Shown: positions 16,803 through 41,461 of the stretch, piece after piece | How the letters are laid out: each line of letters starts with the position of its first letter | How positions within the stretch are numbered: position 1 is the stretch's first letter | Origin: Candidatus Methanomethylophilaceae archaeon | Lineage (GTDB): Archaea; Thermoplasmatota; Thermoplasmata; Methanomassiliicoccales; Methanomethylophilaceae | Length of the DNA: 47,072 bases | Assembly (NCBI GenBank): GCA_028694055.1 | Contig: JAQUUA010000001.1 | Coordinates: 1 to 47,072, forward strand | Direction of reading: 5' to 3' | Position numbers and translations under genes: made by a program | The notes under the pieces: generated by a model | What the model was told of the DNA's origin: nothing | Database searches by the model: none | What the model saw: only the letters and a program-made list of their open reading frames with translations

Positions 16803-18736
16803 AGGATGTTCAGCCCCAGTATCAGATTGAACAATGCCCCCACTCCGAAAGCTAAGGAGATGGAGCAGAAGCTGATAACTAGGGTGTCTCTAAGGCCGAA
16901 CTCCTTCCAGAGCACGGCCATGGTTGCCAGGCACGGCAGGTATATGGCCATCACCAGGCCGAAGATGAAGAACTGATCCGGGCTGAGATAGCTGGAGAGG
17001 TCGGAGACCGTCCCCACGGAGAACAGTGTTATGAGCATGCCCAAGGCCATCTCCTTACGTATCACTCCGACGATGAATGAGATGATGGTGACGGCAGGAA
17101 GGCCTAGAAGGCCCACGGTGAGGAATGTGAATGGGTCCACTATGAAGTTCAATGCATCATAGGCTATGAGAACCTCCACCCCGATGCTTCCCACGAACAA
17201 GAGAGGGAAGGCGATGAGGAAGAAGTCCTTGCTGCGGGACCATGTCTTGAAAGCCACGTTACGGATGGTGGGCAGGCTCAACTCCGGTATCTCCATGGCC
17301 AGATAGGTGGGCTCGTACTGGAGCCAGCGGTCCATCATCCTTCCGAGGATCAGCATGATCGAAAGCAGGACCAGGAATATCAACGCCGCATAGCCGATGC
17401 CAGCGAAACGTCCGGTTATGCCCAGGATGATGGCCATCTGGGCTGAGCAGGGTACGGTCATGACGATGAGGGTGGCTAGGATCAACCTCTCCCTCTTGGT
17501 GCCAGCGGTGCGGGTGGCCAGTACCGCCGGCACGGTGCAACCCAATCCCACCATCATGGGGATCACGGCACGGCCATGCAGGCCGATGCGGTGCATAACG
17601 CCGTCCAACAACACCACTGCCCTAGGCAGATAGCCGGTGTCCTCCAGTATCCCCATGATGATGTAGAACACCATGATGTAAGGTATCACCAGAACCAGGA
17701 TGGCCATGATGCTCTGGTCAACTCCGGTGGCCACTGTCTCCCCTAGGGCCCCTCCTACGGTGGCCCCCCAGGTGATGATGGCGTCACCGACCAGATCATC
17801 GTAGATGCCAGAGATGAGTTCGTCCAGCAATCCACCTAACATCACGATGCCCAGGAAGAGGCTGCTGAGAACAGCAATGAGGATGGGTATGCCGGTGAGA
17901 GGATGGAGGGTGAGGTCGGAGACCTTCTCTTGCAGGGACGGTCCACCTTTGAGGGGCTTCTGCACCCCCCTCAATATCCTTCCTGCCTCTCCGTAACGGT
18001 CCCGGTTGATATGCACATCGATGCTCTCATCGTGAGTTATCTTGAAATCATCAGCGATGACCAGGGCCCGATCCCTCATCTCATCCGGCAATAGTATGGA
18101 GACATACTCGTTGCCTTCCAGCAGTTTCACCGCCGCCCCCCTTTTGGGATACGGCAAATCACCGGTGACCATGGCGACCAATTCGGTGAGATGCGCTTCT
18201 ATGTGCCCGTCATAGCGCACCTGGAACGATGTCCGAGGGAGCTCAGGGCTGAGCATGGCATCCGCCAGCATCTCGATGCCCTCCCCATGCTTAGCGGATA
18301 TGGGTATGACCGGTATCCCCAGTTCCTGGTGCAAAGCCTCCACATCCAGTGTGAATCGTCTGCGCGCCAGGTCCATCTGGTTCAAAGCCAGTATCACCGG
18401 GTATCCCAGCTCGATCAATTGGAAAAGCAGCACCAGCGATGGTTCCAAACGGGTGGCGTCCGCCACCAGTATGACCCGGTCAGGGTGCTCGTCCTCCAGC
18501 ATACGGAGGGCCACCACCTCGTCCTCAGACTCCCCGGACAAGGAGTAGGTCCCCGGGAGGTCGTGAATATGGGCCTTATGACCGTTCCGGAGAACCGTGC
18601 CCTCGTAGAACTCCACCGTCGTCCCAGGATAATTGCAGGCTAGCACGCCAACGCCAGTGAGACGGGTGAACAGGGTGGACTTACCAACATTGGGTTGTCC
18701 CATCAAAGCTACTTGGATTTCCTTGTGCGCCTGCAT
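16799..18736 (-). CDS. feoB: Ferrous iron transporter FeoB
   Basis: G-domain motifs GQPNVGKSTLF, DLPGTYSL and NQMD, followed by a large polytopic membrane domain. I chose the start at ATG 18736 (MQAHKEIQVAL), just after the upstream gene's stop; the track's extension to 18802 overlaps that gene. Confidence 0.9.
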   Translation of the reverse strand: MQAHKEIQVALMGQPNVGKSTLFTRLTGVGVLACNYPGTTVEFYEGTVLRNGHKAHIHDLPGTYSLSGESEDEVVALRMLEDEHPDRVILVADATRLEPSLVLLFQLIELGYPVILALNQMDLARRRFTLDVEALHQELGIPVIPISAKHGEGIEMLADAMLSPELPRTSFQVRYDGHIEAHLTELVAMVTGDLPYPKRGAAVKLLEGNEYVSILLPDEMRDRALVIADDFKITHDESIDVHINRDRYGEAGRILRGVQKPLKGGPSLQEKVSDLTLHPLTGIPILIAVLSSLFLGIVMLGGLLDELISGIYDDLVGDAIITWGATVGGALGETVATGVDQSIMAILVLVIPYIMVFYIIMGILEDTGYLPRAVVLLDGVMHRIGLHGRAVIPMMVGLGCTVPAVLATRTAGTKRERLILATLIVMTVPCSAQMAIILGITGRFAGIGYAALIFLVLLSIMLILGRMMDRWLQYEPTYLAMEIPELSLPTIRNVAFKTWSRSKDFFLIAFPLLFVGSIGVEVLIAYDALNFIVDPFTFLTVGLLGLPAVTIISFIVGVIRKEMALGMLITLFSVGTVSDLSSYLSPDQFFIFGLVMAIYLPCLATMAVLWKEFGLRDTLVISFCSISLAFGVGALFNLILGLNIL

Positions 18737-18740
18737 GGTA

Positions 18741-19394
18741 TCAATCCCTGTCCACGAAGATGAGGTCGGCGTAATCCCGGTCCAAGGCCACACGGCTGTC
18801 ACCGATACGGAGCACTAAGGGTCCTTTGAAGGGAAGGTCGTTCTCCAAAACTATCCGCCTACCGGGGACGAAACCCATGGAGATCAGCTTACGGATCTTT
18901 TCGGCATTCTCACAACGCAGGTGCGATATGACCGCGGCATCACCTTCATTCATGCTAGCCACGGTGTCCTGCGTCAAGCTGTGGTTCACGCAGATCCCGT
19001 CACAGGTATCGTCACATCCCGTGCACTCCTCCGGTTCACCGATGATGCGGCAGAGCTTCTGAGCGGCGCTATCTGAGAGGACATGCTCCAGTTTGCAGGC
19101 CTCTTCGTGAGCGGTCTCGGCATCGGTGTCCAGGATGTTGACCAGGAAACGTTCCATCAGCCGGTGCTTGCGCCTTATCTGTTTGGCATGCCGCTGTCCG
19201 GCCCGGGTGAGTCGGACACCGCGGTACTTCTCATAGTCCACCAGGTTCTCCTCCGCCAGCCGACGCATCATCTCCGTGACGCTGGCCGGAGATACCTTCA
19301 TGAACTGGGCGATGTCATTTGTTTTGGCAACGCCCCCTCCCTGGGTGAGCTTGTGAATGCAGATGAGATAATCCTCGCGGCTACCGGTGACCAT
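18741..19394 (-). CDS. DtxR-family iron-dependent repressor fused to a FeoA/SH3-like domain
   Basis: wHTH segment REDYLICIHKL...TNDIAQFMKVSPASVTEMMRRL. DtxR metal-site pattern HRLMERFL and AHEEACKLEH. C-terminal FeoA-like segment GDAAVISHL...LISMGFVPGRRI. Cys-rich linker EPEECTGCDDTCDGIC. Confidence 0.8.
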   Translation of the reverse strand: MVTGSREDYLICIHKLTQGGGVAKTNDIAQFMKVSPASVTEMMRRLAEENLVDYEKYRGVRLTRAGQRHAKQIRRKHRLMERFLVNILDTDAETAHEEACKLEHVLSDSAAQKLCRIIGEPEECTGCDDTCDGICVNHSLTQDTVASMNEGDAAVISHLRCENAEKIRKLISMGFVPGRRIVLENDLPFKGPLVLRIGDSRVALDRDYADLIFVDRD

Positions 19395-19410
19395 CACGTT
19401 TCGTTATGCC

Positions 19411-19425
19411 TAAAATATATATAAT
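19411..19425 (-). promoter_or_regulatory. TATA-box upstream of the DtxR-family repressor gene
   Basis: The AT-only run TAAAATATATATAAT is centred about 24 nt upstream of ATG 19394. Confidence 0.45.
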
Positions 19426-19447
19426 CGTTGCCAGAAGGAGGTTCAGG

Positions 19448-20476
19448 TCAGAGGTCCCGGAAGGGGACCAGGTCACAACAGGTGCAGGCGAAGCACATGG
19501 TGCGGTAGGACCGGGGATCCAGGCCATAATCTTGCAGAATGCGTTTGTGTTCCCGCGCCAAGCGGGTCATCCTCTCCACGCTGGGAGGCTCCATCTTCCC
19601 CAAAGCGGATTCCAAGTAAGGGCGATTGGTCTCATTGAGGGTCAACATCCGCAATCCAGCAGCCACGCCCATCGATGCCAACCTCTCCACCGTCTGCAGC
19701 AGTGATTGGTCGGTCTCTCCCATGCCGTAGATGATGTTGGACGCCACCTTCCCTGGTCCGAATACATCAACGGCATCCTCCAGCATCCTCCATATGAGAC
19801 CATGGTCCAGATCTGGGCACACGATGCGGAAGATCTCTGGGTCAGGGGACTCCAGGTTGATCTTGATCTCATCGGCCCCAGCCTGGTGCAGGAGCTCGAT
19901 CTGCTCTCGGACCTGGACATAAGGCTCCACGCCTATGATCATATCCGGGATCTCCTGACGAACGTGACGGACGCAATCGGCCATCCTCTCCACGGTCTCC
20001 TGGACCGACCCATACACCCCGGAGGTGACGGACAGCGAGAGGACCGGCATGCTGAGCATGGCCTCCTTGGTCATCTGCACGATCTTCTCCTTGGTCAGAC
20101 CTTTGGTGGCGTTGACATCCAAAAGGGGAGAGTTGCAGTACAGGCAATGATACATGCATCTTTGGTCCAGATTGAAGAAGGCCTGCTCGGGGGAGTGGAA
20201 CACCACCGGTCCGATTTCCACCTCATCCAAGAAAGGCAAACCGTGTCGGTGCAATATGTAGCCGTCATCGCCCACGATGAGCTGGAACTCCGCCTCCTCC
20301 TGCACGATGGCCTTCTTCACCCTCAGCCCATGGAACATGAACACGATGGACCTCTTCCCTGCCCCCGGACCTGCCGTGGACCTCGAGATTCGGAAGGGCA
20401 CCTGGAAACCGGGAGGCAGCTGCACCGCCCCTCCTCGCAGGAGAATGGCCTTCTTCTCGGTCAGACCCTCTTCCAT
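19448..20476 (-). CDS. Radical SAM protein, function unknown
   Basis: CxxxCxxC motif in RCMYHCLYCNSP, TIM-barrel-like core (IGVEPY, EIKINLES) and C-terminal cysteine cluster CFACTCCD. The start overlaps the cysS stop by 16 nt. Confidence 0.7.
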   Translation of the reverse strand: MEEGLTEKKAILLRGGAVQLPPGFQVPFRISRSTAGPGAGKRSIVFMFHGLRVKKAIVQEEAEFQLIVGDDGYILHRHGLPFLDEVEIGPVVFHSPEQAFFNLDQRCMYHCLYCNSPLLDVNATKGLTKEKIVQMTKEAMLSMPVLSLSVTSGVYGSVQETVERMADCVRHVRQEIPDMIIGVEPYVQVREQIELLHQAGADEIKINLESPDPEIFRIVCPDLDHGLIWRMLEDAVDVFGPGKVASNIIYGMGETDQSLLQTVERLASMGVAAGLRMLTLNETNRPYLESALGKMEPPSVERMTRLAREHKRILQDYGLDPRSYRTMCFACTCCDLVPFRDL

Positions 20477-21855
20477 TTCGCCCCCTTGCCGGAATCCTCC
20501 AGCTGGAAGCCCGCATCCTTCAAGCGGTCCCTTATGAGGTCGGCGGCCTGGTATTGCTTACCCCGTCGCAACTCCTCCCTGATGCCGATGATGACCTCCA
20601 TCAGGATATCCACATCGTCAGATCCCTTGTCATCCGGAAGGATGGCCAATACTTGGTCCAGCTCCTCCAGGAGGGAGATTGCAGCAGCTGCGCCTTCGGC
20701 AGATAACCTGGATTCCGCCATGGCGGAATTGGTCTCCCGCACCATCTGGAATATAGCGGATAAGGCGCCACGGCTGTTGAAATCATCGTCCATCTGCTCC
20801 GTGAAGTCCTGCCGACAACGCTCCAGAACCTCGGACATATGCTCTCCACCAGTGGCTTGACGGGAATAGGCTTGCAGCTCCCGATAATTGTTCCAAAGCC
20901 TCTTCAGACTGGATTCCGCCTCCTGCAGTGCCTCCTCGCTGTAACCCAAGGGGCCACGGTAGTGAGTGTTGAGCATGTAGAACCGCAGGGTCTGTCGACT
21001 GTGCTTCTCCAGTACGTCCCGTACCCGGAAGAAGTTCCCGAGGGACTTGCTCATCTTCTCATCCTTGAACTGCACCATGCCGTTGTGCATCCAATAACGA
21101 GCCAGACTGGTTCCTACCGCCGCCTCTGTCTGCAATATCTCGTTCTCATGATGAGGGAATATGAGGTCGTTGCCTCCTCCGTGTATGTCTATGAGGTCTC
21201 CCAGATGCTCCCGGATCATGGCCGAGCATTCGATGTGCCATCCCGGCCGGCCTACGCCCCATGGGGACTCCCAAGCTATCTCTCCCGGCTTGGCGGCCTT
21301 CCAGACCGCGAAATCCATGGGGTTCCGCTTCTGCTCATCCAAAGTCACACGGCCAGATGACACCATGTCCTCCAGTTTCTGTTTGGTGAGCCGACCGTAG
21401 TCTTGGATCCGGTCCACGGAGAAGTAGACGCTGCCGTCCGGGGTGCTGTACCCATACCCGCGTTCGATGATCTGCTCGACCATCTTCACTATGCTGTCCA
21501 TGCTCTCGGAGGCCTTGGGGTAGATATCGGCCCTCCTGACTCCCAGTGCATCCACCTCATGGAAGTACCTCTGGATGTATCGGGCGGAGAGTTCCAGGGG
21601 TGGGACCCCTTCCTCGTTGGCACGGTTGATGATCTTGTCGTCCACATCGGTGAAGTTGGTGACATGGGTGACCTTGAAGCCCCGGTAGCGGAGGTAACGT
21701 GCCACCATGTCGAATACGATGATGCTGCGAGCATGCCCGATATGGATGTCGTCATAGACCGTCACGCCGCAGACATACATCATCACCTCCCCCTCCTTAA
21801 GGGGGATGAAGTCCTCTTTCTGGTTCGACAGGGAGTTGTACACCTTGATAGCCAC
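20461..21855 (-). CDS. cysS: Cysteinyl-tRNA synthetase
   Basis: MYVCGVTVYDDIHIGHARS (HIGH motif), KMSKSLGN (KMSKS motif) and GWHIECSAM. Confidence 0.92.
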   Translation of the reverse strand: MAIKVYNSLSNQKEDFIPLKEGEVMMYVCGVTVYDDIHIGHARSIIVFDMVARYLRYRGFKVTHVTNFTDVDDKIINRANEEGVPPLELSARYIQRYFHEVDALGVRRADIYPKASESMDSIVKMVEQIIERGYGYSTPDGSVYFSVDRIQDYGRLTKQKLEDMVSSGRVTLDEQKRNPMDFAVWKAAKPGEIAWESPWGVGRPGWHIECSAMIREHLGDLIDIHGGGNDLIFPHHENEILQTEAAVGTSLARYWMHNGMVQFKDEKMSKSLGNFFRVRDVLEKHSRQTLRFYMLNTHYRGPLGYSEEALQEAESSLKRLWNNYRELQAYSRQATGGEHMSEVLERCRQDFTEQMDDDFNSRGALSAIFQMVRETNSAMAESRLSAEGAAAAISLLEELDQVLAILPDDKGSDDVDILMEVIIGIREELRRGKQYQAADLIRDRLKDAGFQLEDSGKGAKWKRV

Positions 21856-21885
21856 TTCAGATCCTCCTACCTAGGCAAGCGAAAT

Positions 21886-22539
21886 TCATATTTCATCCTT
21901 CCCCGCAAGTGCGCCCTCCAGTTGAACCACCCTCTCCCGCAGACGGGAAATCTCCTCTTCCATGTTGCACAGGGCATCCTTGAGAGGGTCAGGCAGGTCA
22001 TCGTGGCAGAGGTCACGGTCGGTACGGATGCCTCCCATCTTGATGACCTTTCCCGGTATGCCTACGACCGTGGACTCCGGTGGGACGTCCTTCAGCACCA
22101 CCGAGCCCGCTCCCACCCGGGTGTTGCGGCCTATGCGGATGTTGCCGAGGATGGTGGCATCGGCGCCGATGACCACGTGGTCCTCGATAGTGGGATGGCG
22201 TTTCCCTTTCACGGAAGAGACACCGCCCAACGTCACCCCTTGGAATATGGATACATGGTCGCCGATGACGGTGGTCTCCCCTATGACGACGCCTGTGGCA
22301 TGGTCTATGAAGAAATCCTCCCCGATCTCAGCACCCGGATGGATGTCTGCACCGGTGAGGACGTGGGCCAGATAGTTCAGGAAACGGGAACGCTTGATCT
22401 TCCCTTTGCCCCATAGCTCATGGCTGAGCCTGAACAGCGTCACAGCATGCAGGCCGGGATGGAACCAGATGGCGTCTGAACGGTTCTTTATGGCGGGATC
22501 CCGGTTCAGGACCGCCTGCAGGTCACTCTCTCGTATCAT
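21886..22539 (-). CDS. cysE: Serine O-acetyltransferase
   Basis: N-terminal helical domain DPAIKNRSDAIWFHPGLHAV and hexapeptide repeats GADIHPGAEIG...IDHATGVVIGETTVIGD. Confidence 0.88.
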   Translation of the reverse strand: MIRESDLQAVLNRDPAIKNRSDAIWFHPGLHAVTLFRLSHELWGKGKIKRSRFLNYLAHVLTGADIHPGAEIGEDFFIDHATGVVIGETTVIGDHVSIFQGVTLGGVSSVKGKRHPTIEDHVVIGADATILGNIRIGRNTRVGAGSVVLKDVPPESTVVGIPGKVIKMGGIRTDRDLCHDDLPDPLKDALCNMEEEISRLRERVVQLEGALAGKDEI

Positions 22540-23468
22540 ACGCCCTCCTCCTTGAACAACGGGGTGCTCAGATACCTCTCGCCGCTGTCTGGTAGCACCA
22601 CCAGCACCTGTTCCCCCGGATTCATGCGCGAAGCCACTGCGAGGGCCCCTTTCAAGGCTGCACCGGAGGATATGCCAGCCAGGATGCCTTCCTCTCTCGC
22701 CAAGCGGCGGGTGGTCTGCAGGGCGTCCTCATAGCTGATTGTCAACACCTCATCCAGAACCCTGCGGTCCAAGTTCGGCGGTATGAAATTTGCGCCTATC
22801 CCCTCGATACGGTGTGATGCGGCCTTTCCTTCACTGATGAGAGGGCTCTCGGCCGGCTCCACTCCGATTATCCGCACATCTGACTTGAAATTCTGCATGG
22901 CTCTGCCTATCCCGGTGATGGTCCCACCCGTTCCTATACCGCATACCACTGCCCGTACCCCCGGGAGGTCACGGAGTATCTCCCGGGCCGTGCCCACATA
23001 ATGAGCCATGGGATTGGAGGGATTGCGGAACTGCTGAGGCATGTAGTACCCGTCCTTTCCGGCCAACCTCTCCGCTTCCGCCACAGCCCCGGTCATGCCT
23101 TCGGATGCCGGGGTGAGGACCAATTCCGCCCCGTAAGCCTTCAATAAAGTTCGCCTCTCGACGCTCATGCTCTCTGGCATCACCAAGACGGCCCTGTACC
23201 CTTTCACCGCCGCCACCATGGCCAATCCGATGCCGGTGTTCCCGGACGTCGGCTCCACCAAGGAGTCGCCTGGCTGGATGATTCCACGGGATTCGGCATC
23301 CTCCACCATGGAAAGGGCCACCCTATCCTTGATGGAACCGCCAGGATTGCGGGACTCCATTTTCACGAAAATCTCCGCTGGGAGGCCTTCGCCCATTCGG
23401 TTCAACCTGATGATGGGAGTCTCCCCGATAGTCTTCAGGACGTCGGTATGGATCATGGGTACCGCCAT
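22536..23468 (-). CDS. cysK: Cysteine synthase (O-acetylserine sulfhydrylase)
   Basis: PLP-lysine region NPGGSIKDR, TSGNTGIGLA and GIGTGGTITG. It overlaps the cysE start by 4 nt. Confidence 0.9.
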   Translation of the reverse strand: MAVPMIHTDVLKTIGETPIIRLNRMGEGLPAEIFVKMESRNPGGSIKDRVALSMVEDAESRGIIQPGDSLVEPTSGNTGIGLAMVAAVKGYRAVLVMPESMSVERRTLLKAYGAELVLTPASEGMTGAVAEAERLAGKDGYYMPQQFRNPSNPMAHYVGTAREILRDLPGVRAVVCGIGTGGTITGIGRAMQNFKSDVRIIGVEPAESPLISEGKAASHRIEGIGANFIPPNLDRRVLDEVLTISYEDALQTTRRLAREEGILAGISSGAALKGALAVASRMNPGEQVLVVLPDSGERYLSTPLFKEEGV

Positions 23469-23532: not shown

Positions 23533-24081
23533 TCAGTTCATTAGGCCTGCGGCACGGAGCTCGGCAGCGATCTTGTCCACGGCGCGCACCACGTCCGGCG
23601 GGACCTTGGCGCCAGTGCAGACCATCTTCCCGGAACCGAATAGCAGGACCACTACCTTGGGGTCATCCAAGCGATAGACCAGTCCGGGGAACTGCTCGGG
23701 CTCGTACTCCACCTTCTCCAGGCCCAGGGTGATGGCCACGGTGTTCAGGTTGATCTCCTGCTCCAGATCGGAGGAGGCCACGATGTTCTGCACCTCGATA
23801 TTGGGCTCGATGGTGATGAATATCCCTGCCTTCTCGATGTCTTTGGCCACCTTGCCGATGGCCACCTTGACATCATCAAGGCTCTTGGCCCCAGTGCAGA
23901 CCACTTTTCCGCTGCGGAACAACAATGTCGCAGTCTTGGGGTCTTTCAGCCGGTAAACCAATCCAGGGAACTGCTGGGGGTTGTACTCCGCCCCGTCCAG
24001 GGCCAGTTCGATAGCGGTGAGGTCTAGTTCCTGACCCAAAGAGGTCGAAGCCACAACGTTCTCAATTTTCATCTTAGCCAT
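23533..24081 (-). CDS. tbp: TATA-box binding protein
   Basis: Two direct TBP repeats: IENVVASTSLGQELDL...FPGLVYRL and VQNIVASSDLEQEINL...FPGLVYRL. I chose the start at ATG 24081 (MAKMKIENVV), since the upstream extension to 24132 covers the likely promoter. Confidence 0.9.
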   Translation of the reverse strand: MAKMKIENVVASTSLGQELDLTAIELALDGAEYNPQQFPGLVYRLKDPKTATLLFRSGKVVCTGAKSLDDVKVAIGKVAKDIEKAGIFITIEPNIEVQNIVASSDLEQEINLNTVAITLGLEKVEYEPEQFPGLVYRLDDPKVVVLLFGSGKMVCTGAKVPPDVVRAVDKIAAELRAAGLMN

Positions 24082-24100
24082 CAATTCACCTTTTCCGGTG

Positions 24101-24120
24101 TATTTATAAAGGTATTTAAA
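24101..24120 (-). promoter_or_regulatory. TATA-box region upstream of tbp
   Basis: The minus strand reads TTTAAATACCTTTATAAATA. The proximal TATA is centred about 24 nt upstream of the ATG at 24081. Confidence 0.5.
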
Positions 24121-24160
24121 AAGCTTTTCCAACCTGGAACATGGTTGGGAACGATGATGA

Positions 24161-25414
24161 TCACCTAGCCAAGGAATTCAATACCCGGTCCAGGAGCCTC
24201 ATGGTCCCCTCCAACCCAAGCACGGGCTCCGGGCGTAGCTGGACGCTCCGCAGCCCAGGATAAATTATGTCCAAACCATTGTCGGTCAACCCTTTTGCCA
24301 TCAAGGCCGCGATGGTGTTGCCGTCTGCCAACGCGATATCCACCGGGGATTCCATCAGGTCATCGTCCAATCCCGTCAACCCATGCCGCGACAGATAGGA
24401 ATCGATGGGTCCACGGTCACCGCTGCATACCTTGACTGCCACGGGCACCATTCCCAGATAGGAATGCAGGGCCTCTATCACGGGCAGGGCCAACGAGGCG
24501 TGTGCGGACACGGAGAAGGTCCGGCCTTTGGGTAGCCCCGTTGCAGCATTCAGGCGGGATATCTCCCGATAAGCCAGACGTCGACGGCTCTTAATCTCGC
24601 CCATTGCTGGACCAGGATCGGCATCCAGCTGCGCACATATGCCAGCCACCCAATCCTCCAGGGCATCGAAACCCAGAGGACAGCGGTCGAAGTCGACGTG
24701 TGGAACCCCCAGCTCCTCCTCGTACCAACGGCATATCCGGGAGCAGAAGTCCTTGTCCACAACGACGTTCAGGCTGGATGATGCGGATTCCCTGATTTCG
24801 GATGCCGTCCATCCGGCGCCGATGGCGATGCACAGCTCCAGACCGCATAGATGCAATAGATGGCGCAGGTCCTGCAGGCTGTCCTCCCAGCCCAGATGCC
24901 ATATCGATAAACCGAGCAGGTTCACCTGGCCTATCTTTCTCTCCTTAGGCTGCAGATCCATAGCCTCCAGAATCGCCAGAACCCCTCTTTGATATCCTTC
25001 GCTGATGCTCTCGGAGTATCCGGGGCTCTCCATCCTGGCCACCGGTATGTCTTGGGAATCCACCCGCAGGCCCTCACCGATCAAAGAGGCCCCAGGAGAG
25101 TTCACCACGCCGATGAAGTCCGGCCGTCTTTCCTCCACGGCTCGGAATATTCTATGCAACTTGCCCTCTGCACCCATGATGTAATCGTGGGAGTCCATAT
25201 AGGTGCATGGTATGCGGGGCTGACCGAAGTAGAACTCCGTTACATGTTGCAGAGGATTGAATGAGATCTCCCTCTGGAACATGGAATCGGACAAGGATGC
25301 CGGATAGTACTTACATCCCGTAGGGCCATTCAAGATGGTCACGGAGTTCCGCACACCCTCCAAAGCAAACAGGGCTCCCAGCAACCCATCTGGCATCTGA
25401 TGTTCAGAAGGCAT
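24161..25414 (-). CDS. Nitrogenase component 1-type oxidoreductase, NifK/NifN/BchB-like subunit
   Basis: LEGVRNSVTILNGPTGCKYY, IPCTYMDSHDYIMGAEGKL and FIGVVNSPGASLIGEG, where the Cys normally in this context is absent. It overlaps the upstream fusion gene by 11 nt. Confidence 0.7.
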   Translation of the reverse strand: MPSEHQMPDGLLGALFALEGVRNSVTILNGPTGCKYYPASLSDSMFQREISFNPLQHVTEFYFGQPRIPCTYMDSHDYIMGAEGKLHRIFRAVEERRPDFIGVVNSPGASLIGEGLRVDSQDIPVARMESPGYSESISEGYQRGVLAILEAMDLQPKERKIGQVNLLGLSIWHLGWEDSLQDLRHLLHLCGLELCIAIGAGWTASEIRESASSSLNVVVDKDFCSRICRWYEEELGVPHVDFDRCPLGFDALEDWVAGICAQLDADPGPAMGEIKSRRRLAYREISRLNAATGLPKGRTFSVSAHASLALPVIEALHSYLGMVPVAVKVCSGDRGPIDSYLSRHGLTGLDDDLMESPVDIALADGNTIAALMAKGLTDNGLDIIYPGLRSVQLRPEPVLGLEGTMRLLDRVLNSLAR

Positions 25415-27602
25415 CTTTCCTCCATCCCTCTTCCACGGGAGCCCGTAAGGACAATGCCCACTCCTCGGCCATGTTCAACGCCCCCAGATGACCGAGGTCC
25501 GGTACCAATGGTACCTTGAACTGATGGATCGGGAGGTCCAGCTGCGTGAGGTAAGTGGTGAGCAGAAGCTGAGGTGAATGCTTACGGACATCCTGTTTGA
25601 CCTCTGCCACGTCATAACTGGATTCGAATTCGATTATGTCCCGATGCTCGTTCACCACATCATAATCCATGGAGTGGTCCGCCCTCTCCAGCACTCTGAC
25701 CCTCTGGATCTCCACTTCTAGGTCTATCAACAAATCCACCAGCCAATCGATGTCCTTATGCATGCTCAGCACGTAGACAGAACGACCTTTGAGGTGGGGC
25801 TTCAAGGCCTCCAGCCGCTCCTGGTACTCCGACCTTATCCGGTCCATCGTGTCATCCAGCCTATCAGTAATGCCGGCCTGCTCTGCCAAGCATCGTAGCC
25901 ATCTTTCTGTCCCTCTCATTCCTGGCTGCACCGCCAATGGGCTGAATGTGGCTCCCTGTTCTTTCACCAGGTAGTCTTTTAACACCATGGCGAAACGGTC
26001 AGTGCTCATGAGCAAGGACAGAGGAGCCCTACGGAAGGCACGTATCTGTTCCAAAGAAGAATCACCGATGTAACGGCAGTTGACCTGCAATCCCAACATG
26101 GATATCAGCCGTGACACGGCCTCTATGTTGGCATGACAATTGCTGGCGATAGGCTTGATGCCCACAAGGTTGACCGCCTCTGGGGATTCTTCCACATCCT
26201 GTTCAATCAGGCAACGTGACAAGCCGATGCAGGCATCGATCACTCCCTGCATATGGTCCCCCTGCATGTTACCATCCTCGATTAGGGGGATGAACGTCAC
26301 GTCAGGATTGGCGAGACTCATCCTTTCCATGGTCTTGACGACATCATCCCCGATGATCCCGGCAGGACAGGAGGTAATGACCGCGATGTTCCTAGAACCC
26401 TCATTGATGCATTGCTCCATCTTGTCTTGCAGGGCTGATACCCCTCCGAATACCATGCAGGACTCCTGCATGGAAGTGCTATGAACGTCGGTGTCCAGGA
26501 AAGAACGGACCAAGGTGCCCTCACGCAGGAACGACCGCCTGACGCCGTTGGATGCCAGCTGATATGCGAGATGGGCACAACTGTCGGGACCATGCAATAT
26601 GGTTGTCAGGTCTTGCACGGACATGCATATGGCCGCTGCCCCTGAGAACGCACATCCATGCAGTATCTCGCCCTTGTCCACATTCCGGGAGGTGTAACGC
26701 AGGACGGCCTTCTTACCCTCATGGGCCAATTCAGGAGTATCAGCTGTTTTCACAGGACTCCTCACCGATGAGATGCCCAGAACCACTGATTCCAAGTCTT
26801 GCTCAGAAAGATGATGGGCGGTGTGCCTCCTTCCGGAAAGAACCTCGGAAGCCAGCCCGTGGAACACCTGGGACAATTCTCCCTCCGGTTTCAGTTCCAC
26901 CAGTGTGACACCTTCCTTCTCAGCGGCCAGGAACAAAGGGGAACGAGGAACGCTGGCAACCACCGGGACGCCGACAGCCTGGGAGAACCTCTCCACCCTT
27001 TCCTCTTCTTCCTGGTCCCCACGGCTGTTGAAGATGATGCCCCCGATACGGTGCGGGTCGTAGTTCGCCACTCCTCGGAGTATGTTGTTTGCAGCATACA
27101 GAGACATGAACTCGCCGGAGGTGACCACATAAACCGTGTCAGCGTACTCATCCCTCAGGGGGACGGCGAAACCGCCACACACCACATCCCCCAAGACGTC
27201 ATAGATGGTAATATCGTGCTCCAATCCCTCAATGCCCAATTCCTCCAGGAGGTCGAAGGCGGAGATGATGCCCCTGCCTGCACAACCCACCCCTGGCTCC
27301 GGACCACCCGCCTCGACACAATGGCATCCTTGGAAGCCTGTGCCCATAACATGGTCCAGCCTTCTCTCTTGAGGCGGTGTGTAGCGTAGATAATCGAGAA
27401 CTGTGATAGGTGGAGAACCGTTGGTCAGAAGCCGAGTGGAATCATGTTTGGGATCGCAACCGATCTGCAGGACCCTCTGGCCTCTGAGGGTAAGGGCAGC
27501 GGTGAGGTTGGAGGAGATTGTGGATTTACCGATGCCCCCTTTGCCATAGAGGGCAATCCTCCTTCGTCCATTTGATTGGATGGATATATCATCCATTGTC
27601 AT
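25404..27602 (-). CDS. Fusion protein: NifH/BchL/CfbC-like Fe-protein ATPase (N-terminal) plus NifD/NifE/BchN-like nitrogenase component 1 domain (C-terminal)
   Basis: N-terminal ~280 aa: GKGGIGKST, CDPKHDSTR, GPEPGVGCAGRGI, DVLGDVVCGGFA and SGEFMSLYAANNI. C-terminal ~430 aa: HGCAFSGAAA, ILHGPDSCAH, MVFGG and VITSCPAGIIGDD. It is one uninterrupted ORF. Possible starts are TTG 27605, ATG 27602 or ATG 27596. Confidence 0.8.
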   Translation of the reverse strand: MTMDDISIQSNGRRRIALYGKGGIGKSTISSNLTAALTLRGQRVLQIGCDPKHDSTRLLTNGSPPITVLDYLRYTPPQERRLDHVMGTGFQGCHCVEAGGPEPGVGCAGRGIISAFDLLEELGIEGLEHDITIYDVLGDVVCGGFAVPLRDEYADTVYVVTSGEFMSLYAANNILRGVANYDPHRIGGIIFNSRGDQEEEERVERFSQAVGVPVVASVPRSPLFLAAEKEGVTLVELKPEGELSQVFHGLASEVLSGRRHTAHHLSEQDLESVVLGISSVRSPVKTADTPELAHEGKKAVLRYTSRNVDKGEILHGCAFSGAAAICMSVQDLTTILHGPDSCAHLAYQLASNGVRRSFLREGTLVRSFLDTDVHSTSMQESCMVFGGVSALQDKMEQCINEGSRNIAVITSCPAGIIGDDVVKTMERMSLANPDVTFIPLIEDGNMQGDHMQGVIDACIGLSRCLIEQDVEESPEAVNLVGIKPIASNCHANIEAVSRLISMLGLQVNCRYIGDSSLEQIRAFRRAPLSLLMSTDRFAMVLKDYLVKEQGATFSPLAVQPGMRGTERWLRCLAEQAGITDRLDDTMDRIRSEYQERLEALKPHLKGRSVYVLSMHKDIDWLVDLLIDLEVEIQRVRVLERADHSMDYDVVNEHRDIIEFESSYDVAEVKQDVRKHSPQLLLTTYLTQLDLPIHQFKVPLVPDLGHLGALNMAEEWALSLRAPVEEGWRKDAF

Positions 27603-27617
27603 CAAAGAATCTATTCG

Positions 27618-27629
27618 ATATATTTATAA
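27618..27629 (-). promoter_or_regulatory. TATA-box upstream of the NifH-NifD-like fusion gene
   Basis: The minus strand reads TTATAAATATAT, centred 22-28 nt upstream of the candidate start codons (27602/27596). This is consistent with a leaderless or short-leader mRNA. Confidence 0.45.
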
Positions 27630-27669: not shown

Positions 27670-27743
27670 TGGGGCCGGGAGGGAGAATCGAACTCCCGTC
27701 TGCGGATCTGCAGTCCGCCACATGGCCGCTATGTTATCCCGGC
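27670..27743 (-). tRNA. tRNA-Cys (anticodon GCA), CCA encoded
   Basis: Hand-folded cloverleaf from the reverse complement: acceptor GCCGGGA/TCCCGGC, D stem ACAT/ATGT, anticodon stem GCGGA/TCCGC with loop CTGCAGA, 4-nt variable loop, T arm GGGAG-TTCGATT-CTCCC, then C-CCA. Confidence 0.85.
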
Positions 27744-27858: not shown

Positions 27859-28707
27859 ATGTTGCCCATTCATTGCAAGGATCTATCCGTGAGAGAAGTT
27901 TCTCACCCCCTCACACCAGAAGGCATAGCACAAGGCATGGCGAGCAAGAAAGCCTATGTGCGCTCCGATTTCCTGGTACTCAAGAATGGGGAGGACTATG
28001 CGGTCCTGAAGATAGAAAAATCCGGTGGCAAGGAACTCTTCCAGTCGATCTTGGGCTATGATGTGATCTCGTACCCCGAGGACACCATCTTCATTCAGGA
28101 TCCAAGCATGGACATCCTGAATCCCTCCGCTCTGCTACGGCTTTCCATGCAGCATCCCGGTAAGACCTTGGTGGTGGAGGGCGTCTTCTCGCATGTTAAT
28201 TTCGTACATGGGCTGGAACCTCTGCACTTACGGGTCCTAGATAACATCCCCCCTGCGCCTTCTAAGTTATCCTGCTTGGTTCGACAGTCCATGGACTCCG
28301 GTTTCCTAGACCTCCCCATCCTGCCCCAGGTTGTGGACATAGACATGCAAGAGAAACTGGAGGAAGTCAACACCGAGGCCGTTATGTTCCCCTGCAAGGT
28401 ATCTGGCCTCAAAGCAGATAAACCAGTCTACTTCTTGGATCAGGCACCACAGCTGACGCATGATGTCACTCTCATCGGCTGCCATCTGTCACAACGGATT
28501 TTCGAGTCCCTTTACCGTAAAAAGGTGCCCTTCGTCAACGTCTGCCCCGCCGATTTCATTCCTGATGATGATGTGCCCACCATCATCAAATGCTGCAAGA
28601 TCAAGAACGGGCACCAGATCGATGGTAATGTGGCAAAGGTCCCTTGGGGGGCCACTGTGCCAGAGGTCACCCGGGCCATAGAGGCTTTGTTCTCAAGGTC
28701 GGAATAG
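27859..28707 (+). CDS. Hypothetical protein (282 aa) with a cysteine-rich C-terminal half
   Basis: Long ORF with coding-like composition, and an A/T-rich box (AAAAAACAATAATA) about 30 nt upstream. I recognise no family. Cys contexts: IGCHLSQ, VNVCPADF, IIKCCKIKNGH. An alternative start exists at ATG 27937. Confidence 0.5.
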   Translation: MLPIHCKDLSVREVSHPLTPEGIAQGMASKKAYVRSDFLVLKNGEDYAVLKIEKSGGKELFQSILGYDVISYPEDTIFIQDPSMDILNPSALLRLSMQHPGKTLVVEGVFSHVNFVHGLEPLHLRVLDNIPPAPSKLSCLVRQSMDSGFLDLPILPQVVDIDMQEKLEEVNTEAVMFPCKVSGLKADKPVYFLDQAPQLTHDVTLIGCHLSQRIFESLYRKKVPFVNVCPADFIPDDDVPTIIKCCKIKNGHQIDGNVAKVPWGATVPEVTRAIEALFSRSE

Positions 28708-29657: not shown

Positions 29658-30833
29658 ATGTTGCCCGAGAACATGATTACGGAATGCCCTTACAACCCAC
29701 AGCCTAAGGTGGGGAAGGTCATCGTATACGATTCCACCTTGAGAGACGGGGAACAGATGCCAGGAGTGGCATTCCGTCATGAAGATAAATTAAAGATAGC
29801 CAGCATGCTCAGCGAGGCAGGTGTGCCAGAGATCGAGGCTGGATTCGCTGCCGTCTCCCAGCATGAGCTGGATACCATCAAATCCATAACGGGCCTGGGA
29901 CTGGATGCCAAGATACTCAGCCTTTCCCGCGCCCGTCAATCAGACATTGATTGTGCCTTGAAGGCCGGTGTTGACATTGTCCTACTGTTCGCAGGCACTT
30001 CAGACATCCACCTCCGCTACAAGTACGGTCACATCGTCAATCATGACGAGATACTGTCTCAGTCCGTGGATGCTGTGGAGTATGCTAAGTCACATGGGGT
30101 TAAGGTCAGCTTCAGCTGCGAGGACGGCACCCGTACGCCATTCGACTTCCTGTTAAGAATGTACAAAGCTGTCGAAGATGCAGGTGCTGACCGGCTGGGC
30201 ATAACGGACACCCTAGGCTGCATCACCCCGGAAGGAATCTCGAAACTGGTACGGGATGTGAAAGCCAAAGTCAAACGTCCAGTTTCTGTTCACCTCCATA
30301 ACGATTTCGGCCTAGCCAACGCCAATGCGTTGTCAGCAGCGATGGCAGGTGCTGATGCCATCACCACCACTGTCAATGGCATGGGAGAGAGATGCGGTAA
30401 CGTTCCCTTGGAGCAGTTCGCATCCTCCATGTTCTTCCTCTACGGAGTGGATTTGGGGATTGACCTCTCACATCTCACGGAGATATCCCGGCAAGTCTCT
30501 CAAATGGCTCGCTACCAATGCTCTGTGAACCACCCCATCACCGGTGAGAACGCTTTCTCACATGAATCGGGGATTCATGTAGCAGCGATAATGAACCACC
30601 CCTCGACCTACGAATACATCGACCCAGAGAAGGTGGGCAACCGCCGTCATCTGCGTTTGGGTAAACACTCGGGAGCCAGCTATCTAAAGAAGAGGCTTGC
30701 GGACCTGGGATATGAATGCACGCCCTCTCAACTCAACCTCATCCTGGACGACGTCAAGTCTCTGGGTGAGCAACAAGGAAGAGTGGATGACCAAGAGTTC
30801 CTGAGCATTGTCAAGAGAAACCTAAACTCATAA
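29658..30833 (+). CDS. Homocitrate/2-isopropylmalate synthase family enzyme, short form lacking the LeuA regulatory domain (AksA/NifV/CimA-like)
   Basis: YDSTLRDGEQMPGVAF, EAGF and VHLHNDFGLANANAL. The ~390 aa length implies no C-terminal regulatory domain. Confidence 0.75.
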   Translation: MLPENMITECPYNPQPKVGKVIVYDSTLRDGEQMPGVAFRHEDKLKIASMLSEAGVPEIEAGFAAVSQHELDTIKSITGLGLDAKILSLSRARQSDIDCALKAGVDIVLLFAGTSDIHLRYKYGHIVNHDEILSQSVDAVEYAKSHGVKVSFSCEDGTRTPFDFLLRMYKAVEDAGADRLGITDTLGCITPEGISKLVRDVKAKVKRPVSVHLHNDFGLANANALSAAMAGADAITTTVNGMGERCGNVPLEQFASSMFFLYGVDLGIDLSHLTEISRQVSQMARYQCSVNHPITGENAFSHESGIHVAAIMNHPSTYEYIDPEKVGNRRHLRLGKHSGASYLKKRLADLGYECTPSQLNLILDDVKSLGEQQGRVDDQEFLSIVKRNLNS

Positions 30834-32516: not shown

Positions 32517-33659
32517 CTACTTTCCCTCTCGTAATCCTTTCAGGACCTGGGAGAATGAATCCAGGAAATAGTCCGCCTCGTCCATGGTGCTGAATCGGGA
32601 GAGGCTTACCCGGAGTACTGACAGGGCCTCCTCGGGTGGAATGCCCATAGCGGTGAGCACATGGGACGGTTCCACGCTCTCTGCCGTGCATGCTGATGCC
32701 GTGGAGGTGGCCAAGCCCATGTCGCTGAGCGCGAAGACCACGTCTTTACCCGAAATCCCAGGGAAACGAAGATGCACATTGTTGCATAGACGTCTTTCCC
32801 TGGGGCCGTTGAGAGCTATTCCATCCATCTGCATGGCTCCGTCTATGATGTGGTCGCGTATGGAAGTCATTCTGCGGATGTCTTCCTCTCTTCCTTCCAT
32901 GGCCAATTCCACCGCCTTGCCCATACCCACTATTCCAGGCACGTTCTCGGTAGCTGGACGGAGGTTCCCCTCCTGTCCGCCTCCATAGAAGAGGGGTTTC
33001 AACTTAACACCGTTTCGGACGTAAAGGGCGCCGATCCCTTTCGGCCCATGGAACTTGTGGCCGGAGATGGATAGCATGTCGATCCCCATCTTCTGCATAT
33101 CCAGATCCATCTTGGTGAACCCTTGCACAGCATCGGTATGGAAAAGAACGCCTTTCTCCTGGCAGATCGCAGCCAAGTATGGGACATCTTGCATGCTCCC
33201 CACCACGTTGTTGGCCGCCATAACAGATACCAGAACCGTGCGGTGGTTGATGGATCTCTCCAGCTCCTCAGGGTCGACAAAGCCTTCCCTGTCCACCGGT
33301 AGGATGTGGATGTCGAACCCTAGCTCTCGCAGCCTATCGGCAGTGGCGAGTATGGCGGAATGCTCTATGGAGGTTGTGATAATCCTATCACCCGGTTTGC
33401 CATAAGCCAGTGCCGCCCCTTGCAGAGCGATGTTGTCAGACTCCGTACCCGATGAGGTGAAATAGACCTCAGTGGGAAGGCAGTTCAGTGCCTTGGAAAT
33501 CGTTCTCCTGGAATCACGGATGGCAATGGCCGCCCCGTCTCCCAGGAAATGAAGGCTGCTGGGATTGCCGTACTGTTCCCTGAAGAATGGCATCATGGCC
33601 TCCAGGACCCGTGAGTCCATCATGGTGGTGGCACTGTTGTCAAAATAAACGGAGCGCAT
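32517..33659 (-). CDS. Cysteine desulfurase, NifS/IscS type (group I)
   Basis: VYFDNSATTMMD, PLP-lysine context SISGHKFHGPKG and catalytic Cys loop TASACTAESVEPSHVL. I chose the start at ATG 33659 (MRSVYFDNS). The 81-codon upstream extension in the track has no family similarity and crosses the divergent promoter region. Confidence 0.85.
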   Translation of the reverse strand: MRSVYFDNSATTMMDSRVLEAMMPFFREQYGNPSSLHFLGDGAAIAIRDSRRTISKALNCLPTEVYFTSSGTESDNIALQGAALAYGKPGDRIITTSIEHSAILATADRLRELGFDIHILPVDREGFVDPEELERSINHRTVLVSVMAANNVVGSMQDVPYLAAICQEKGVLFHTDAVQGFTKMDLDMQKMGIDMLSISGHKFHGPKGIGALYVRNGVKLKPLFYGGGQEGNLRPATENVPGIVGMGKAVELAMEGREEDIRRMTSIRDHIIDGAMQMDGIALNGPRERRLCNNVHLRFPGISGKDVVFALSDMGLATSTASACTAESVEPSHVLTAMGIPPEEALSVLRVSLSRFSTMDEADYFLDSFSQVLKGLREGK

Positions 33660-33743
33660 CTTAACCACTTGGAATGTATGAACGACATATAAGAAATGAT
33701 TGCGAGGGGAAACATCAAAAAGGGGGGAACGGATGCCCAAGGG

Positions 33744-34949
33744 ATGGACGTATCTCGCATCAAACAGGATTTCCCCGCACTTCGGGATGGAGACCTGGTG
33801 TACTTGGACAGCGCCTGCCAGACCTTGCGTCCGCAGTGTGTGATCGATGCGGTTACGGAGTACTACCGGGACTATCCGGCCTGCGGTGGAAGGAGCGTGC
33901 ATCGCATGGCCACCCGAGTGTCAGTGCAAATGGACCGTTCCCGTGAGGCCATGGCGGCCTTTTTGGGAGCCAAGGATGCGCAGAACATCATCTTCACCAA
34001 GAACTGCACAGAATCCATCAACCTAGTGGCCAAAGGCCTGAGTTGGATGAAGGGCGACGTGGTCATGACCACCGATTTAGAACATAACTCCAACCATGCC
34101 CCCTGGGTTGATTTAACAGAGAACATAGGCCTTAAAAGAGTGATAGTCCCCACAGGCCCAGGAGGGGTTTTCGACCTCGATGCATATCAGGACAGCTTCA
34201 GAAGCCAGGTGCGATTGGTCTCCATGGCCCACACTAGCAACGTCACCGGCACCACGATACCGATGAAGGAGGTCGTGGAGATTGCCCATGACCACGGGGC
34301 GATGGTTCTAATCGATGGTGCCCAAGCTGCTCCACATATGCCAGTTGACGTGCATAAAACAGGCGTAGATTTCTACGCCCTATCTGGACATAAGATGCTG
34401 GGGCCCTCGGCCGTAGGCGTGCTCTACGGCACGGATGAATCATTGGAATCGTTGAAACCCTTGATGCTGGGAGGAGGGACGGTGGGCAGAGCAGACTATG
34501 ACAAAGTGCATCTGGCACCGGCTCCAGAGCGGTTCGAAGCGGGGTTGGCGAACTATTCCGGCATCATCGGCACCGGTGCCGCTTTGGATTACCTTTCCAA
34601 GATCGGAATGGACAATATCAGTAAACATGAGCATCGTCTTCAGAGGGTCTTGCAGGAGAGGCTCGATGAAATCGAGGGGATCTCCCTGGTCGGTCCGGAC
34701 GACCCTGATGCCCGAAGCAGCGTCTTCTCCTTCAACCTCCCGGGACTAGGGTCCCATGATGTAGCCATGATGGTGGATGAGATGGCGGCGGTTCTCATCC
34801 GTTCAGGGATGCATTGCGCCCACCCATACTTCTATTCTCGAGGCATCAATGGGTGTGTCCGGGCCTCCACCTACATCTACAACGATGAGGATGACATGCA
34901 CAGGCTCGTGGATGCATTGCTGAAGGTCTCCAAGACCTTCTGCAATTGA
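33744..34949 (+). CDS. Cysteine desulfurase, SufS/CsdA type (group II)
   Basis: IKQDFPAL...VYLDSACQT, HTSNVTG, ALSGHKMLGPSAVG and the catalytic Cys context RSGMHCAHP. I chose the start at ATG 33744 (MDVSRIKQDFP). Confidence 0.85.
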   Translation: MDVSRIKQDFPALRDGDLVYLDSACQTLRPQCVIDAVTEYYRDYPACGGRSVHRMATRVSVQMDRSREAMAAFLGAKDAQNIIFTKNCTESINLVAKGLSWMKGDVVMTTDLEHNSNHAPWVDLTENIGLKRVIVPTGPGGVFDLDAYQDSFRSQVRLVSMAHTSNVTGTTIPMKEVVEIAHDHGAMVLIDGAQAAPHMPVDVHKTGVDFYALSGHKMLGPSAVGVLYGTDESLESLKPLMLGGGTVGRADYDKVHLAPAPERFEAGLANYSGIIGTGAALDYLSKIGMDNISKHEHRLQRVLQERLDEIEGISLVGPDDPDARSSVFSFNLPGLGSHDVAMMVDEMAAVLIRSGMHCAHPYFYSRGINGCVRASTYIYNDEDDMHRLVDALLKVSKTFCN

Positions 34950-41420: not shown

Positions 41421-41461
41421 GCTAGACCGTAGGAACGGAACCCATATAGGTTTATTGTCCT

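Follow-up and report, generated by a model that had tools for sequence, protein, structure and literature searches.

The locus described here lies in a 47,072-nucleotide stretch of contig JAQUUA010000001.1 from a Candidatus Methanomethylophilaceae archaeon (GenBank assembly GCA_028694055.1), to which we refer as the window. The first of its two genes encodes a NifH-type ATPase (H) fused in one polypeptide to a NifD/NifE-like component (D), and the second encodes a NifK-like partner (K); the pair is termed HD-K below. Judged by its sequence, HD-K belongs to an uncharacterised clade of nitrogenase-like (NFL) ATP-dependent reductases. The fusion recurs in anaerobes of gut and sediment; it is the dominant architecture of a large and old clade and not a one-off. 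As the best explanation of the function, which we stop just short of calling probable, we propose an ATP-driven reductase whose substrate would be a corrinoid or some other tetrapyrrole from cobamide metabolism.

Both genes reside on the minus strand and overlap by 11 nucleotides, as a preliminary description made from the letters of the stretch had stated. The locus comprises the following features.

25404..27605 (-): H-D fusion gene, a NifH-type ATPase, a linker and a NifD/NifE-like domain in a single open reading frame (ORF), from the ORF list and Pfam
26772..27563 (-): H domain, residues 15-278, with the P-loop GKGGIGKST, switch I CDPKHDSTR, switch II DVLGDVVCGGFA, and the cysteines C108 and C143
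26703..26771 (-): inter-domain linker, residues 279-301, about 23 residues, flexible (pLDDT below 50) and weakly conserved in sequence
25407..26702 (-): D domain, residues 302-733, NifD/NifE-like according to Pfam, the alignment to NifD, NifE and BchN, and a D-only model
24161..25414 (-): K-like partner gene, 417 residues, Oxidored_nitro with 138 bits over the whole ORF (Pfam)
25404..25414 (-): overlap of the H-D stop with the K start, 11 nucleotides, ATGCCTTCTGA, with GGAGG just 5' of the second ATG
27621..27629 (-): TATA-box-like element TTATAAATA, read directly from the sequence, its centre about 29 nucleotides upstream of the ATG at 27596
27670-27743 (-): tRNA-Cys gene, 64 nucleotides upstream of the H-D gene on the same strand

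All motifs that the preliminary description quoted for the two genes are present in the translations. Pfam detects two domains in the first ORF, as expected if PF00142-type and PF00148-type domains share one polypeptide: Fer4_NifH spans residues 15-275 with 288 bits (E 8.8e-86), and Oxidored_nitro spans residues 318-717 with 177 bits (E 5.1e-52). The fusion ORF comprises 733 residues from the TTG at 27605 or 730 residues from the ATG at 27596, of which the latter is likely the true start, as in the 730-residue homologues in the databases. Because the TATA-like element, also correctly noted before, is only about 29 nucleotides away from this ATG, the transcript is probably leaderless or nearly so. 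The overlap together with the GGAGG suggests translational coupling of the K-like protein. The 11-nucleotide overlap is the most frequent arrangement among related pairs (19/53), and the others overlap as well when the longest ORFs are called.

The same fusion was found far beyond the window. In a collection of 5.8 billion proteins, at least 120 clusters (90% identity) have the Fer4_NifH plus Oxidored_nitro architecture at 44-99% identity, and the named members of this first homologue set are Methanomassiliicoccales. When the D domain alone was searched against 1.84 billion representatives at 50% identity, 669 matches were obtained at E<=1e-3. Among the best 150 of these 669, about 65 are full fusions of 660-770 residues with an intact P-loop and both NifH cysteines, reaching down to 22-25% identity. 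A search seeded from a distant representative returned at least another 120 fused clusters in Lachnospiraceae, Oscillospiraceae, Ruminococcus and other Bacillota, and a scan of species-representative genomes with the K-like protein located the HD-K pair also in Methanospirillum (two copies), Methanolobus, Thermoguttaceae and Parasporobacterium. At every locus long enough to tell, the K-like gene lies directly 3' of the fusion gene (53/53 pairs). Since hundreds of independent assemblies contain this architecture, a frameshift artefact local to the window is ruled out. More generally, an assembly or frameshift artefact or a decaying pseudogene fusion would have to arise in over 240 clusters (90% identity) from independent assemblies and sources, with invariant catalytic motifs, a constrained linker length and confident AlphaFold2 models, and we regard it as virtually excluded.

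Two papers have mentioned the fused architecture in passing, and neither of them discusses its function; one is Borrel et al. (2014; PMC4153887), whose table of replication origins lists a "fused nifH/nifE" of Candidatus (Ca.) M. intestinalis. Fusions are not mentioned in the 2026 review of NFL enzymes, nor are Methanomassiliicoccales (PMC13474568).

Two variations on the architecture were observed. Triple fusions of the type H-H-D occur at L004 10001-13285 (P0112, 1094 residues), at L020 6596-9916 and in P0184 (1081 residues). Ahead of the D domain, they contain two intact tandem NifH domains that each possess the P-loop and the pair of cluster cysteines, and they would thus amount to a single-chain Fe-protein dimer restoring the usual H ratio. 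Their hosts are Thermoguttaceae-type bacteria, and the genes have a FecCD-type importer upstream and an ABC exporter downstream. Moreover, several genomes carry two or three paralogous HD-K pairs, e.g., two in tandem in L015, further ones in L016, and those at L022 523-3977 and 9937-13391. A metagenome-assembled genome of a termite-gut Methanomassiliicoccaceae has pairs on two contigs, and the two pairs of Methanospirillum are 6 kb apart. The multiplicity of paralogues hints at more than one substrate or condition.

Among 127 fused homologues, the P-loop, switch I, switch II, and the cysteines C108, C143, C318, C343 and C413 are invariant. In the AlphaFold2 model of the full-length protein, the mean pLDDT is 84.5 and disorder is limited to residues 1-12 and 279-301. 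In the fold search, the modelled H domain superposes on nitrogenase Fe proteins with TM-scores of 0.85-0.90 at 40-46% identity. L276, the last conserved residue of the H domain, and C318, the first cysteine of the D domain, are separated by 36-42 residues in 121/127 homologues, and this near-constant spacing suggests a geometric constraint on how H reaches D.

As for the D domain, the full-length fold search was uninformative, as its top 50 matches were all Fe proteins. We therefore rely on the D-only model (pLDDT 88, pTM 0.87), which gave TM-scores of about 0.70 against NifD and MarD and 0.73-0.75 against NifE, all at 17-21% identity. The predicted structure would assign D to no characterised family, none being clearly closest. 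The best sequence match of D among known structures, with 62 bits, was 9p1x_A of the NifD/NifE type, and the only significant matches of the K-like protein in the PDB sequence search were BchB chains of DPOR.

We also scored both proteins against the curated NCBIfam models, and neither reached any of the cut-offs. The H domain obtained 310 bits on CfbC (cut-off 402), 302 on nifH (394), 194 on BchL (345) and 177 on BchX (331). The component-1 models remained much further from their thresholds, with 82 bits on nifD (654), 75 on nifE (505), 31 on nifK (427), 49 on BchB (490), 23 on BchN (324), 21-25 on BchZ (529) and 26.9 on CfbD (TIGR03282; 268). In a crude neighbour-joining tree, built from BLOSUM distances without support values and with NifD, NifE, NifK, BchN and BchB as the only outgroups, all fused D domains fall into a single clade that excludes NifD, NifE and BchN, and the K-like proteins are placed on the NifK/BchB side. 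At the sequence level, HD-K possesses the NifH-type ATPase with the bridging-cluster cysteines and the D and K components of the Oxidored_nitro type that define NFL enzymes. It departs from their usual organisation with a separate, transiently docking reductase, as H and D form one ORF here and in hundreds of homologues. Taken by these criteria, HD-K would be neither CfbCD, nitrogenase, DPOR/COR nor Mar.

The metal-cluster ligands provide a further comparison. We aligned the family with NifD, NifK, NifE, BchN and BchB from annotated plasmids; the NifD and NifK references were taken from a Cupriavidus plasmid, and a Rhizobium plasmid was set aside because of its broken nifD and nifK frames. The ligand positions correspond as follows.

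NifD Cys62, Cys88 and Cys154: C318, C343 and C413 of the D domain
NifD Cys275, the ligand of the iron-molybdenum cofactor (FeMo-co): Ser534 in the window, S/D/T/N across the clade
NifK Cys70: Asp or Glu in the K-like protein (D/E9), 52/53
NifK Cys95, equivalent to BchB Asp36: Cys34 of the K-like protein (NGPTGC), invariant in 53/53
NifK Cys153: Pro107 of the K-like protein, invariant, within the NSPGAS motif

The column of NifD His442 could not be aligned reliably in the D domain. Only four of the six P-cluster positions are thus occupied by cysteine, three in D and one in K. The conserved ligands are predicted to allow one [4Fe-4S] cluster at the D/K interface, coordinated by C318, C343, C413 and Cys34 of the K-like protein, and, on the canonical ligands, neither a P-cluster nor an M- or L-type cluster could be held. 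One more cysteine, Cys510 of D (window 26076-26078), is found in 123/127 fused sequences and is invariant in a mixed alignment of archaeal and Firmicutes members. It aligns with no known ligand of nitrogenase or DPOR and could be a catalytic or substrate-proximal residue.

The preliminary description had assigned the second gene to the K/N/B-like type and reported the loss of its cysteine in the IGDD-type context, and both hold, an invariant Pro107 taking the place of this cysteine. The DPOR-like asymmetry it drew from this holds in part: a cysteine-rich D is indeed paired with a cysteine-poor K, but the K-side ligand is a cysteine as in BchZ of COR rather than an aspartate. In DPOR, the aspartate of BchB occupies the K-side ligand position, whereas three cysteines of BchY and one of BchZ have been proposed as the cluster ligands in COR (PMC13474568). 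The 3+1 cysteine pattern of HD-K would accordingly match the one proposed for COR, not the Asp36 type of DPOR, with Cys34 located at the position of BchB Asp36 and the BchZ cysteine. HD-K shares with both of these group V enzymes the ATP-dependent NifH-like reductase, the heteromeric D/K pair, a single asymmetric [4Fe-4S] cluster and the lack of FeMo-co. It differs from them in that their reductase is a separate polypeptide, in the D domain being nearer to NifD/NifE than to BchN, in the lack of bch genes in the window and in related loci, and in its hosts, which are not phototrophs.

A fused form of the F430 enzyme CfbCD has some initial appeal, because the host is a methanogen and the best NCBIfam match of the H domain is CfbC. 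HD-K and CfbCD would also have in common the restriction to [4Fe-4S] clusters and the chelatase/a,c-diamide synthase/NFL logic of the pathway. The CfbC score, however, is below its cut-off and close to that on nifH, and the D domain scores about a tenth of the CfbD cut-off. CfbD is homomeric, with about 350 residues and two cysteines per subunit, in contrast to a D domain of 430 residues with three ligand cysteines and an ever-present K-like partner. The family extends beyond methanogens to bacteria such as Lachnospiraceae, Oscillospiraceae and Thermoguttaceae, and Methanomassiliicoccales have separate cfbC and cfbD: three of their genomes carry separate NflD, nifH-like and MurF-like genes (Borrel et al., 2014; PMC4153887). 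On the contig L007, a stand-alone NifH/CfbC-like gene is present 10 kb from the HD-K pair. We therefore consider a fused CfbCD very improbable, in agreement with the earlier view that this is not a plain F430 enzyme.

Compared with NifHDK and NifEN, HD-K retains the three P-cluster cysteines of the alpha subunit, and NifD/NifE are the best matches of D in both sequence and structure. It keeps only one of the three beta-subunit cysteines, has a non-cysteine residue at the Cys275 position, falls short of the curated cut-offs by a factor of 5-8 and has H and D fused. A NifEN-like scaffold for FeMo-co or the L-cluster was considered and rejected, given the missing cluster cysteine, the lack of NifB in the window and the presence of the family in gut Firmicutes. 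The uncharacterised NFL groups IV-D/E and VI resemble HD-K, as simple clusters and an action on tetrapyrroles have been predicted for them, and group VI retains no more than four of the P-cluster's six cysteines. Group VI differs in its surroundings with radical SAM genes, and an H-D fusion in groups IV-D/E and VI is mentioned neither in the preprint 10.1101/765248 on group VI nor in the review PMC13474568.

The proposed function derives from the gene neighbourhoods of the family. A metagenome scan added 80 loci, and after dereplication at 85% identity, 54 loci with at least 3 kb of flanking sequence were retained for the census. A family related to corrinoids, FecCD transport or corrinoid activation is encoded within 6 kb in 32/54 loci, and a strict cobamide-biosynthesis family in 19/54. 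With growing distance from the pair, such corrinoid, transport and activase families become scarcer among the neighbours: they account for 18% in the 0-4 kb range, 8-12% in the 4-8 kb range and 2% in the 8-10 kb range. CobN (8/54) and ChlI/ChlD (6/54) are the commonest strict neighbours. In operon range, the most frequent partners are a transporter ATPase upstream (8 loci) and CobB, the cobyrinic acid a,c-diamide synthase, downstream (5 loci).

Individual loci illustrate these associations. In Methanolobus, the gene order is FecCD, ABC ATPase, CbiZ, HD, K and a CbiK-like gene; in Methanospirillum, it is ABC ATPase, HD, K and a CbiK-like gene, with CbiZ nearby. Among Methanomassiliicoccales, CobB follows directly 3' of K in L006, L014 and L016, where it exceeds its cut-off of 254 with 403-422 bits and stays below the one for CfbB. 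CbiP, the cobyric acid synthase, is divergently upstream in L014, and CobD, CbiB, CbiZ and CobS are divergently upstream in L017. ChlI/ChlD and CobN (947 bits, cut-off 822) lie downstream in L007. An activase of the RamA or RACo type adjoins the pair in three lineages, including L114 and L031, and the RamA assignment has 699 bits against a cut-off of 500. An association of HD-K with cobamides appears to be unreported in the literature we searched, where we found no link between NFL enzymes and corrinoids, CbiZ or cobamides.

The FecCD permeases of Methanomassiliicoccales drew our attention in their own right, as large PQQ-like beta-propeller domains are fused to them or precede them (L006 17303-20233, L001 3195-5129). 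The resulting proteins of 976 and 644 residues have an architecture unusual for this transporter class.

For the archaeal members, we lean towards a role linked to cobamides or tetrapyrroles. Within such a role, one particular step would fit the neighbours. The product of CobB and CobNST is cob(II)yrinic acid a,c-diamide; CbiP depends on its adenosylated form and CbiZ on adenosylcobinamide. Oxidised corrinoids are brought in by BtuFCD-type importers, and RamA and RACo carry out the same reduction on protein-bound corrinoids. As the neighbouring enzymes converge on it, the step we would favour is one ahead of adenosylation, in which the cobalt of cob(II)yrinic acid a,c-diamide or of salvaged cobinamide is reduced from Co(II) to Co(I); its place would be between CobB/CobNST and CbiP and before CbiZ. 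Taken by itself, this assignment is on the unlikely side. RACo/RamA and CobR/PduS would then be functional analogues of unrelated fold, not homologues, delivering an electron to the Co(II) of a corrinoid at very low potential. RACo and RamA spend ATP in doing so and combine an ASKHA ATPase with a ferredoxin domain; CobR and PduS are flavoproteins. The Co2+/1+ couple is at about -450 mV, many anaerobic-pathway organisms have no orthologue of CobR, and no dedicated Co(II)-to-Co(I) corrin reductase is known from them (PMC4083273). An ATP-coupled low-potential reductase fits this task. It is nevertheless doubtful at present that HD-K is the ATP-driven corrin reductase still missing from the anaerobic biosynthesis and salvage of cobamides.

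In the mechanism we envisage, two H domains would dimerise and build a bridging [4Fe-4S] cluster from C108 and C143 of each chain. Since two H domains are needed for the bridging cluster, the minimal unit would be (HD)2K2. Binding of MgATP would dock the tethered H2 onto a D/K interface. Each ATP cycle would then deliver one low-potential electron to the cluster at this interface, from which it would reach a substrate bound between the two subunits. The tether would presumably take the place of the diffusional association and dissociation of nitrogenase.

Several observations weigh against a corrinoid reductase. Its support is guilt by association, and 22/54 loci, including the window, have no corrinoid-related neighbour; the 47-kb window encodes no cobamide gene at all and surrounds the pair with cysteine, Fe-S and housekeeping genes. 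Haem and siderophores are further cargoes of FecCD/Peripla_BP_2-type transporters. Beside the pair, no adenosyltransferase gene was identified. The Firmicutes pairs are mostly isolated two-gene units, with 3/5 contexts uninformative and one containing RACo. No cobalamin riboswitch was detected at Rfam gathering thresholds in ten bacterial and two archaeal related loci, and the null result in the ten bacterial loci counts against a B12 role in bacteria. A single H per D/K is half the ratio of nitrogenase and would have to serve two interfaces. Cob(II)alamin bound to adenosyltransferase can be reduced by flavodoxin or free flavin, so that a dedicated reductase may be needless (PMC4083273). The characterised NFL enzymes acting on tetrapyrroles, namely DPOR, COR and CfbCD, all reduce C=C bonds of the ring and not the metal centre (PMC13474568).

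This last point, the COR-like 3+1 cysteine pattern for a [4Fe-4S] cluster and a gene order resembling bchNB-bchH-bchL clusters would suit a ring-reducing tetrapyrrole reductase. Following a logic like that of F430, it would act with the class-I chelatase CobN plus ChlI/ChlD, the top strict neighbours, and with the CobB-like synthase, the top downstream operon partner, to make or modify a not-yet-known reduced Co- or Ni-tetrapyrrole. The CobB neighbours, however, pass the cut-off for cobyrinic acid a,c-diamide synthase and not that for CfbB, a new ring pathway leaves the late-assembly and salvage proteins CbiZ, CbiB, CobS, CbiP and RamA unexplained, and no new reduced corrinoid is known from the host organisms. 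We consider such a ring reductase unlikely, yet a serious rival. A substitution for CbiJ was also considered and found unlikely, because M. intestinalis and its relatives have CbiJ according to the LUCA-corrin study (PMC7617358).

The loci devoid of corrinoid neighbours and the negative riboswitch scan of the ten bacterial loci could instead indicate an unrelated, non-tetrapyrrole substrate, the cobamide neighbours of the archaea being coincidental or a matter of one subfamily, with the Firmicutes and window types possibly differing. C-S and sulfonate chemistry has recently been added to the reactions of NFL enzymes (PMC13474568, PMC11423573), and MatE efflux genes recur beside Firmicutes pairs. 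The decay with distance and the cobamide adjacency in operon range across several orders make chance an unlikely cause, and the ligands and motifs common to archaeal and Firmicutes members argue for a common chemistry. On balance, a non-tetrapyrrole substrate is rather unlikely. The MatE-family gene itself stands directly beside HD-K in Lachnospiraceae on two unrelated contigs (L030 8603-9949; L035 13671-15026), and is the sole recurrent neighbour seen in Firmicutes besides one RACo gene.

The surroundings of the pair in the window differ from those in more distant relatives. One flank carries FeoB, a radical SAM gene, CysS, CysE, CysK and TBP, and the other one tRNA-Cys, an XcbA-family gene, a homocitrate-synthase-like gene, PyrD/K and two class-V aminotransferases. 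The features are as follows.

20461-21855: cysS
21886-22539: cysE
22536-23468: cysK
23533-24132: TBP
27859-28707 (+): DUF7714/XcbA-family gene, CoM_XcbA_fam with 225 bits (cut-off 150), divergent from HD across tRNA-Cys
29658-30833 (+): homocitrate-synthase-like gene, HMGL-like plus HCS_D2, 2 kb from the pair
39826-42052 (-): ABC-2 exporter with a DUF4443/CggR_N regulator, i.e., regulator 41462-42052, ATPase 40485-41420 and membrane protein 39826-40488

The location between tbp and tRNA-Cys near cysK-cysE-cysS, described previously, was confirmed, and Pfam scans of 32 among the larger ORFs of the window revealed no nifB/E/N, cfb or bch genes, again as first reported. The synteny of the window is kept in a relative with 84% identity and lost in more distant ones. 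The XcbA-family neighbour is kept in four dereplicated lineages of the subclade to which the window belongs.

From this position, the preliminary description had suggested sulfur salvage by a C-S reductase like MarHDK or IsrHDK. The pair between tRNA-Cys and TBP-cysK-cysE-cysS, the desulfurase-like and XcbA-family genes nearby, the recurrence of CysE (6/54) and CysK (4/54), and the three-component organisation (H, D and K) of the group IV type are in line with it. CysE, CysK and TBP (4/54) recur, however, in the window's subclade alone, alongside the housekeeping genes TBP and CysS, and the neighbours across the family are those of cobamide metabolism and FecCD transport. Mar uses a P-cluster and an L-cluster-like cofactor, which requires MarB/NifB (PMC13474568). 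In HD-K, only four of the six P-cluster cysteines are present, the L-cluster/FeMo-co cysteine position is variable, no nifB or marB is found within the window, and the TM-score of the D model is no higher with MarD (9fmg_A) than with NifD. The suggested link therefore lacks support, and sulfur salvage seems improbable.

A broader cysteine/Fe-S theme extends over 16799-23468 and 32517-34949, where a DtxR/FeoA-like ORF is also located, and the two class-V aminotransferase genes, which are cysteine-desulfurase-like, are adjacent and divergent. These surroundings could reflect the supply of Fe-S clusters, or coincidence. The homocitrate-synthase-like gene probably encodes the AksA of methanogens or a citramalate/isopropylmalate synthase and not NifV, as the D domain is without the FeMo-co ligand. 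The DUF4443/CggR_N regulator is also found directly upstream of HD in the Ca. M. intestinalis-type loci L001, L002, L011 and L012.

Whatever its substrate, the family bears on how metagenomes are read: the NCBI names of its members, "nitrogenase component 1", "AAA family ATPase" and "nitrogenase iron protein NifH", can inflate counts of nitrogen-fixation potential. HD-K also bears on how NFL reductases work. The Fe protein of nitrogenase binds and leaves in each cycle, CfbC forms a persistent complex with CfbD so that obligatory dissociation in NFL enzymes is questioned, and the need for dissociation in some of them has been openly asked (PMC13474568). The natural, length-constrained H-D fusion and the H-H-D proteins provide a test case for whether an NFL reductase must dissociate, and the tether is a possible template for engineered single-chain nitrogenase-like systems.

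HD-K forms a large NFL clade, abundant in the gut methanogens of Methanomassiliicoccales and in gut Firmicutes, for which the cobamide context gives a testable substrate class. If the proposed reduction of Co(II) to Co(I) is true, it would fill the known gap in corrin reduction of the anaerobic pathway (PMC4083273), and the single-chain tether would show that turnover does not require the reductase to dissociate. HD-K would then be the first member of the nitrogenase superfamily to act on a metal centre rather than on an N-N, C-C or C-S bond.

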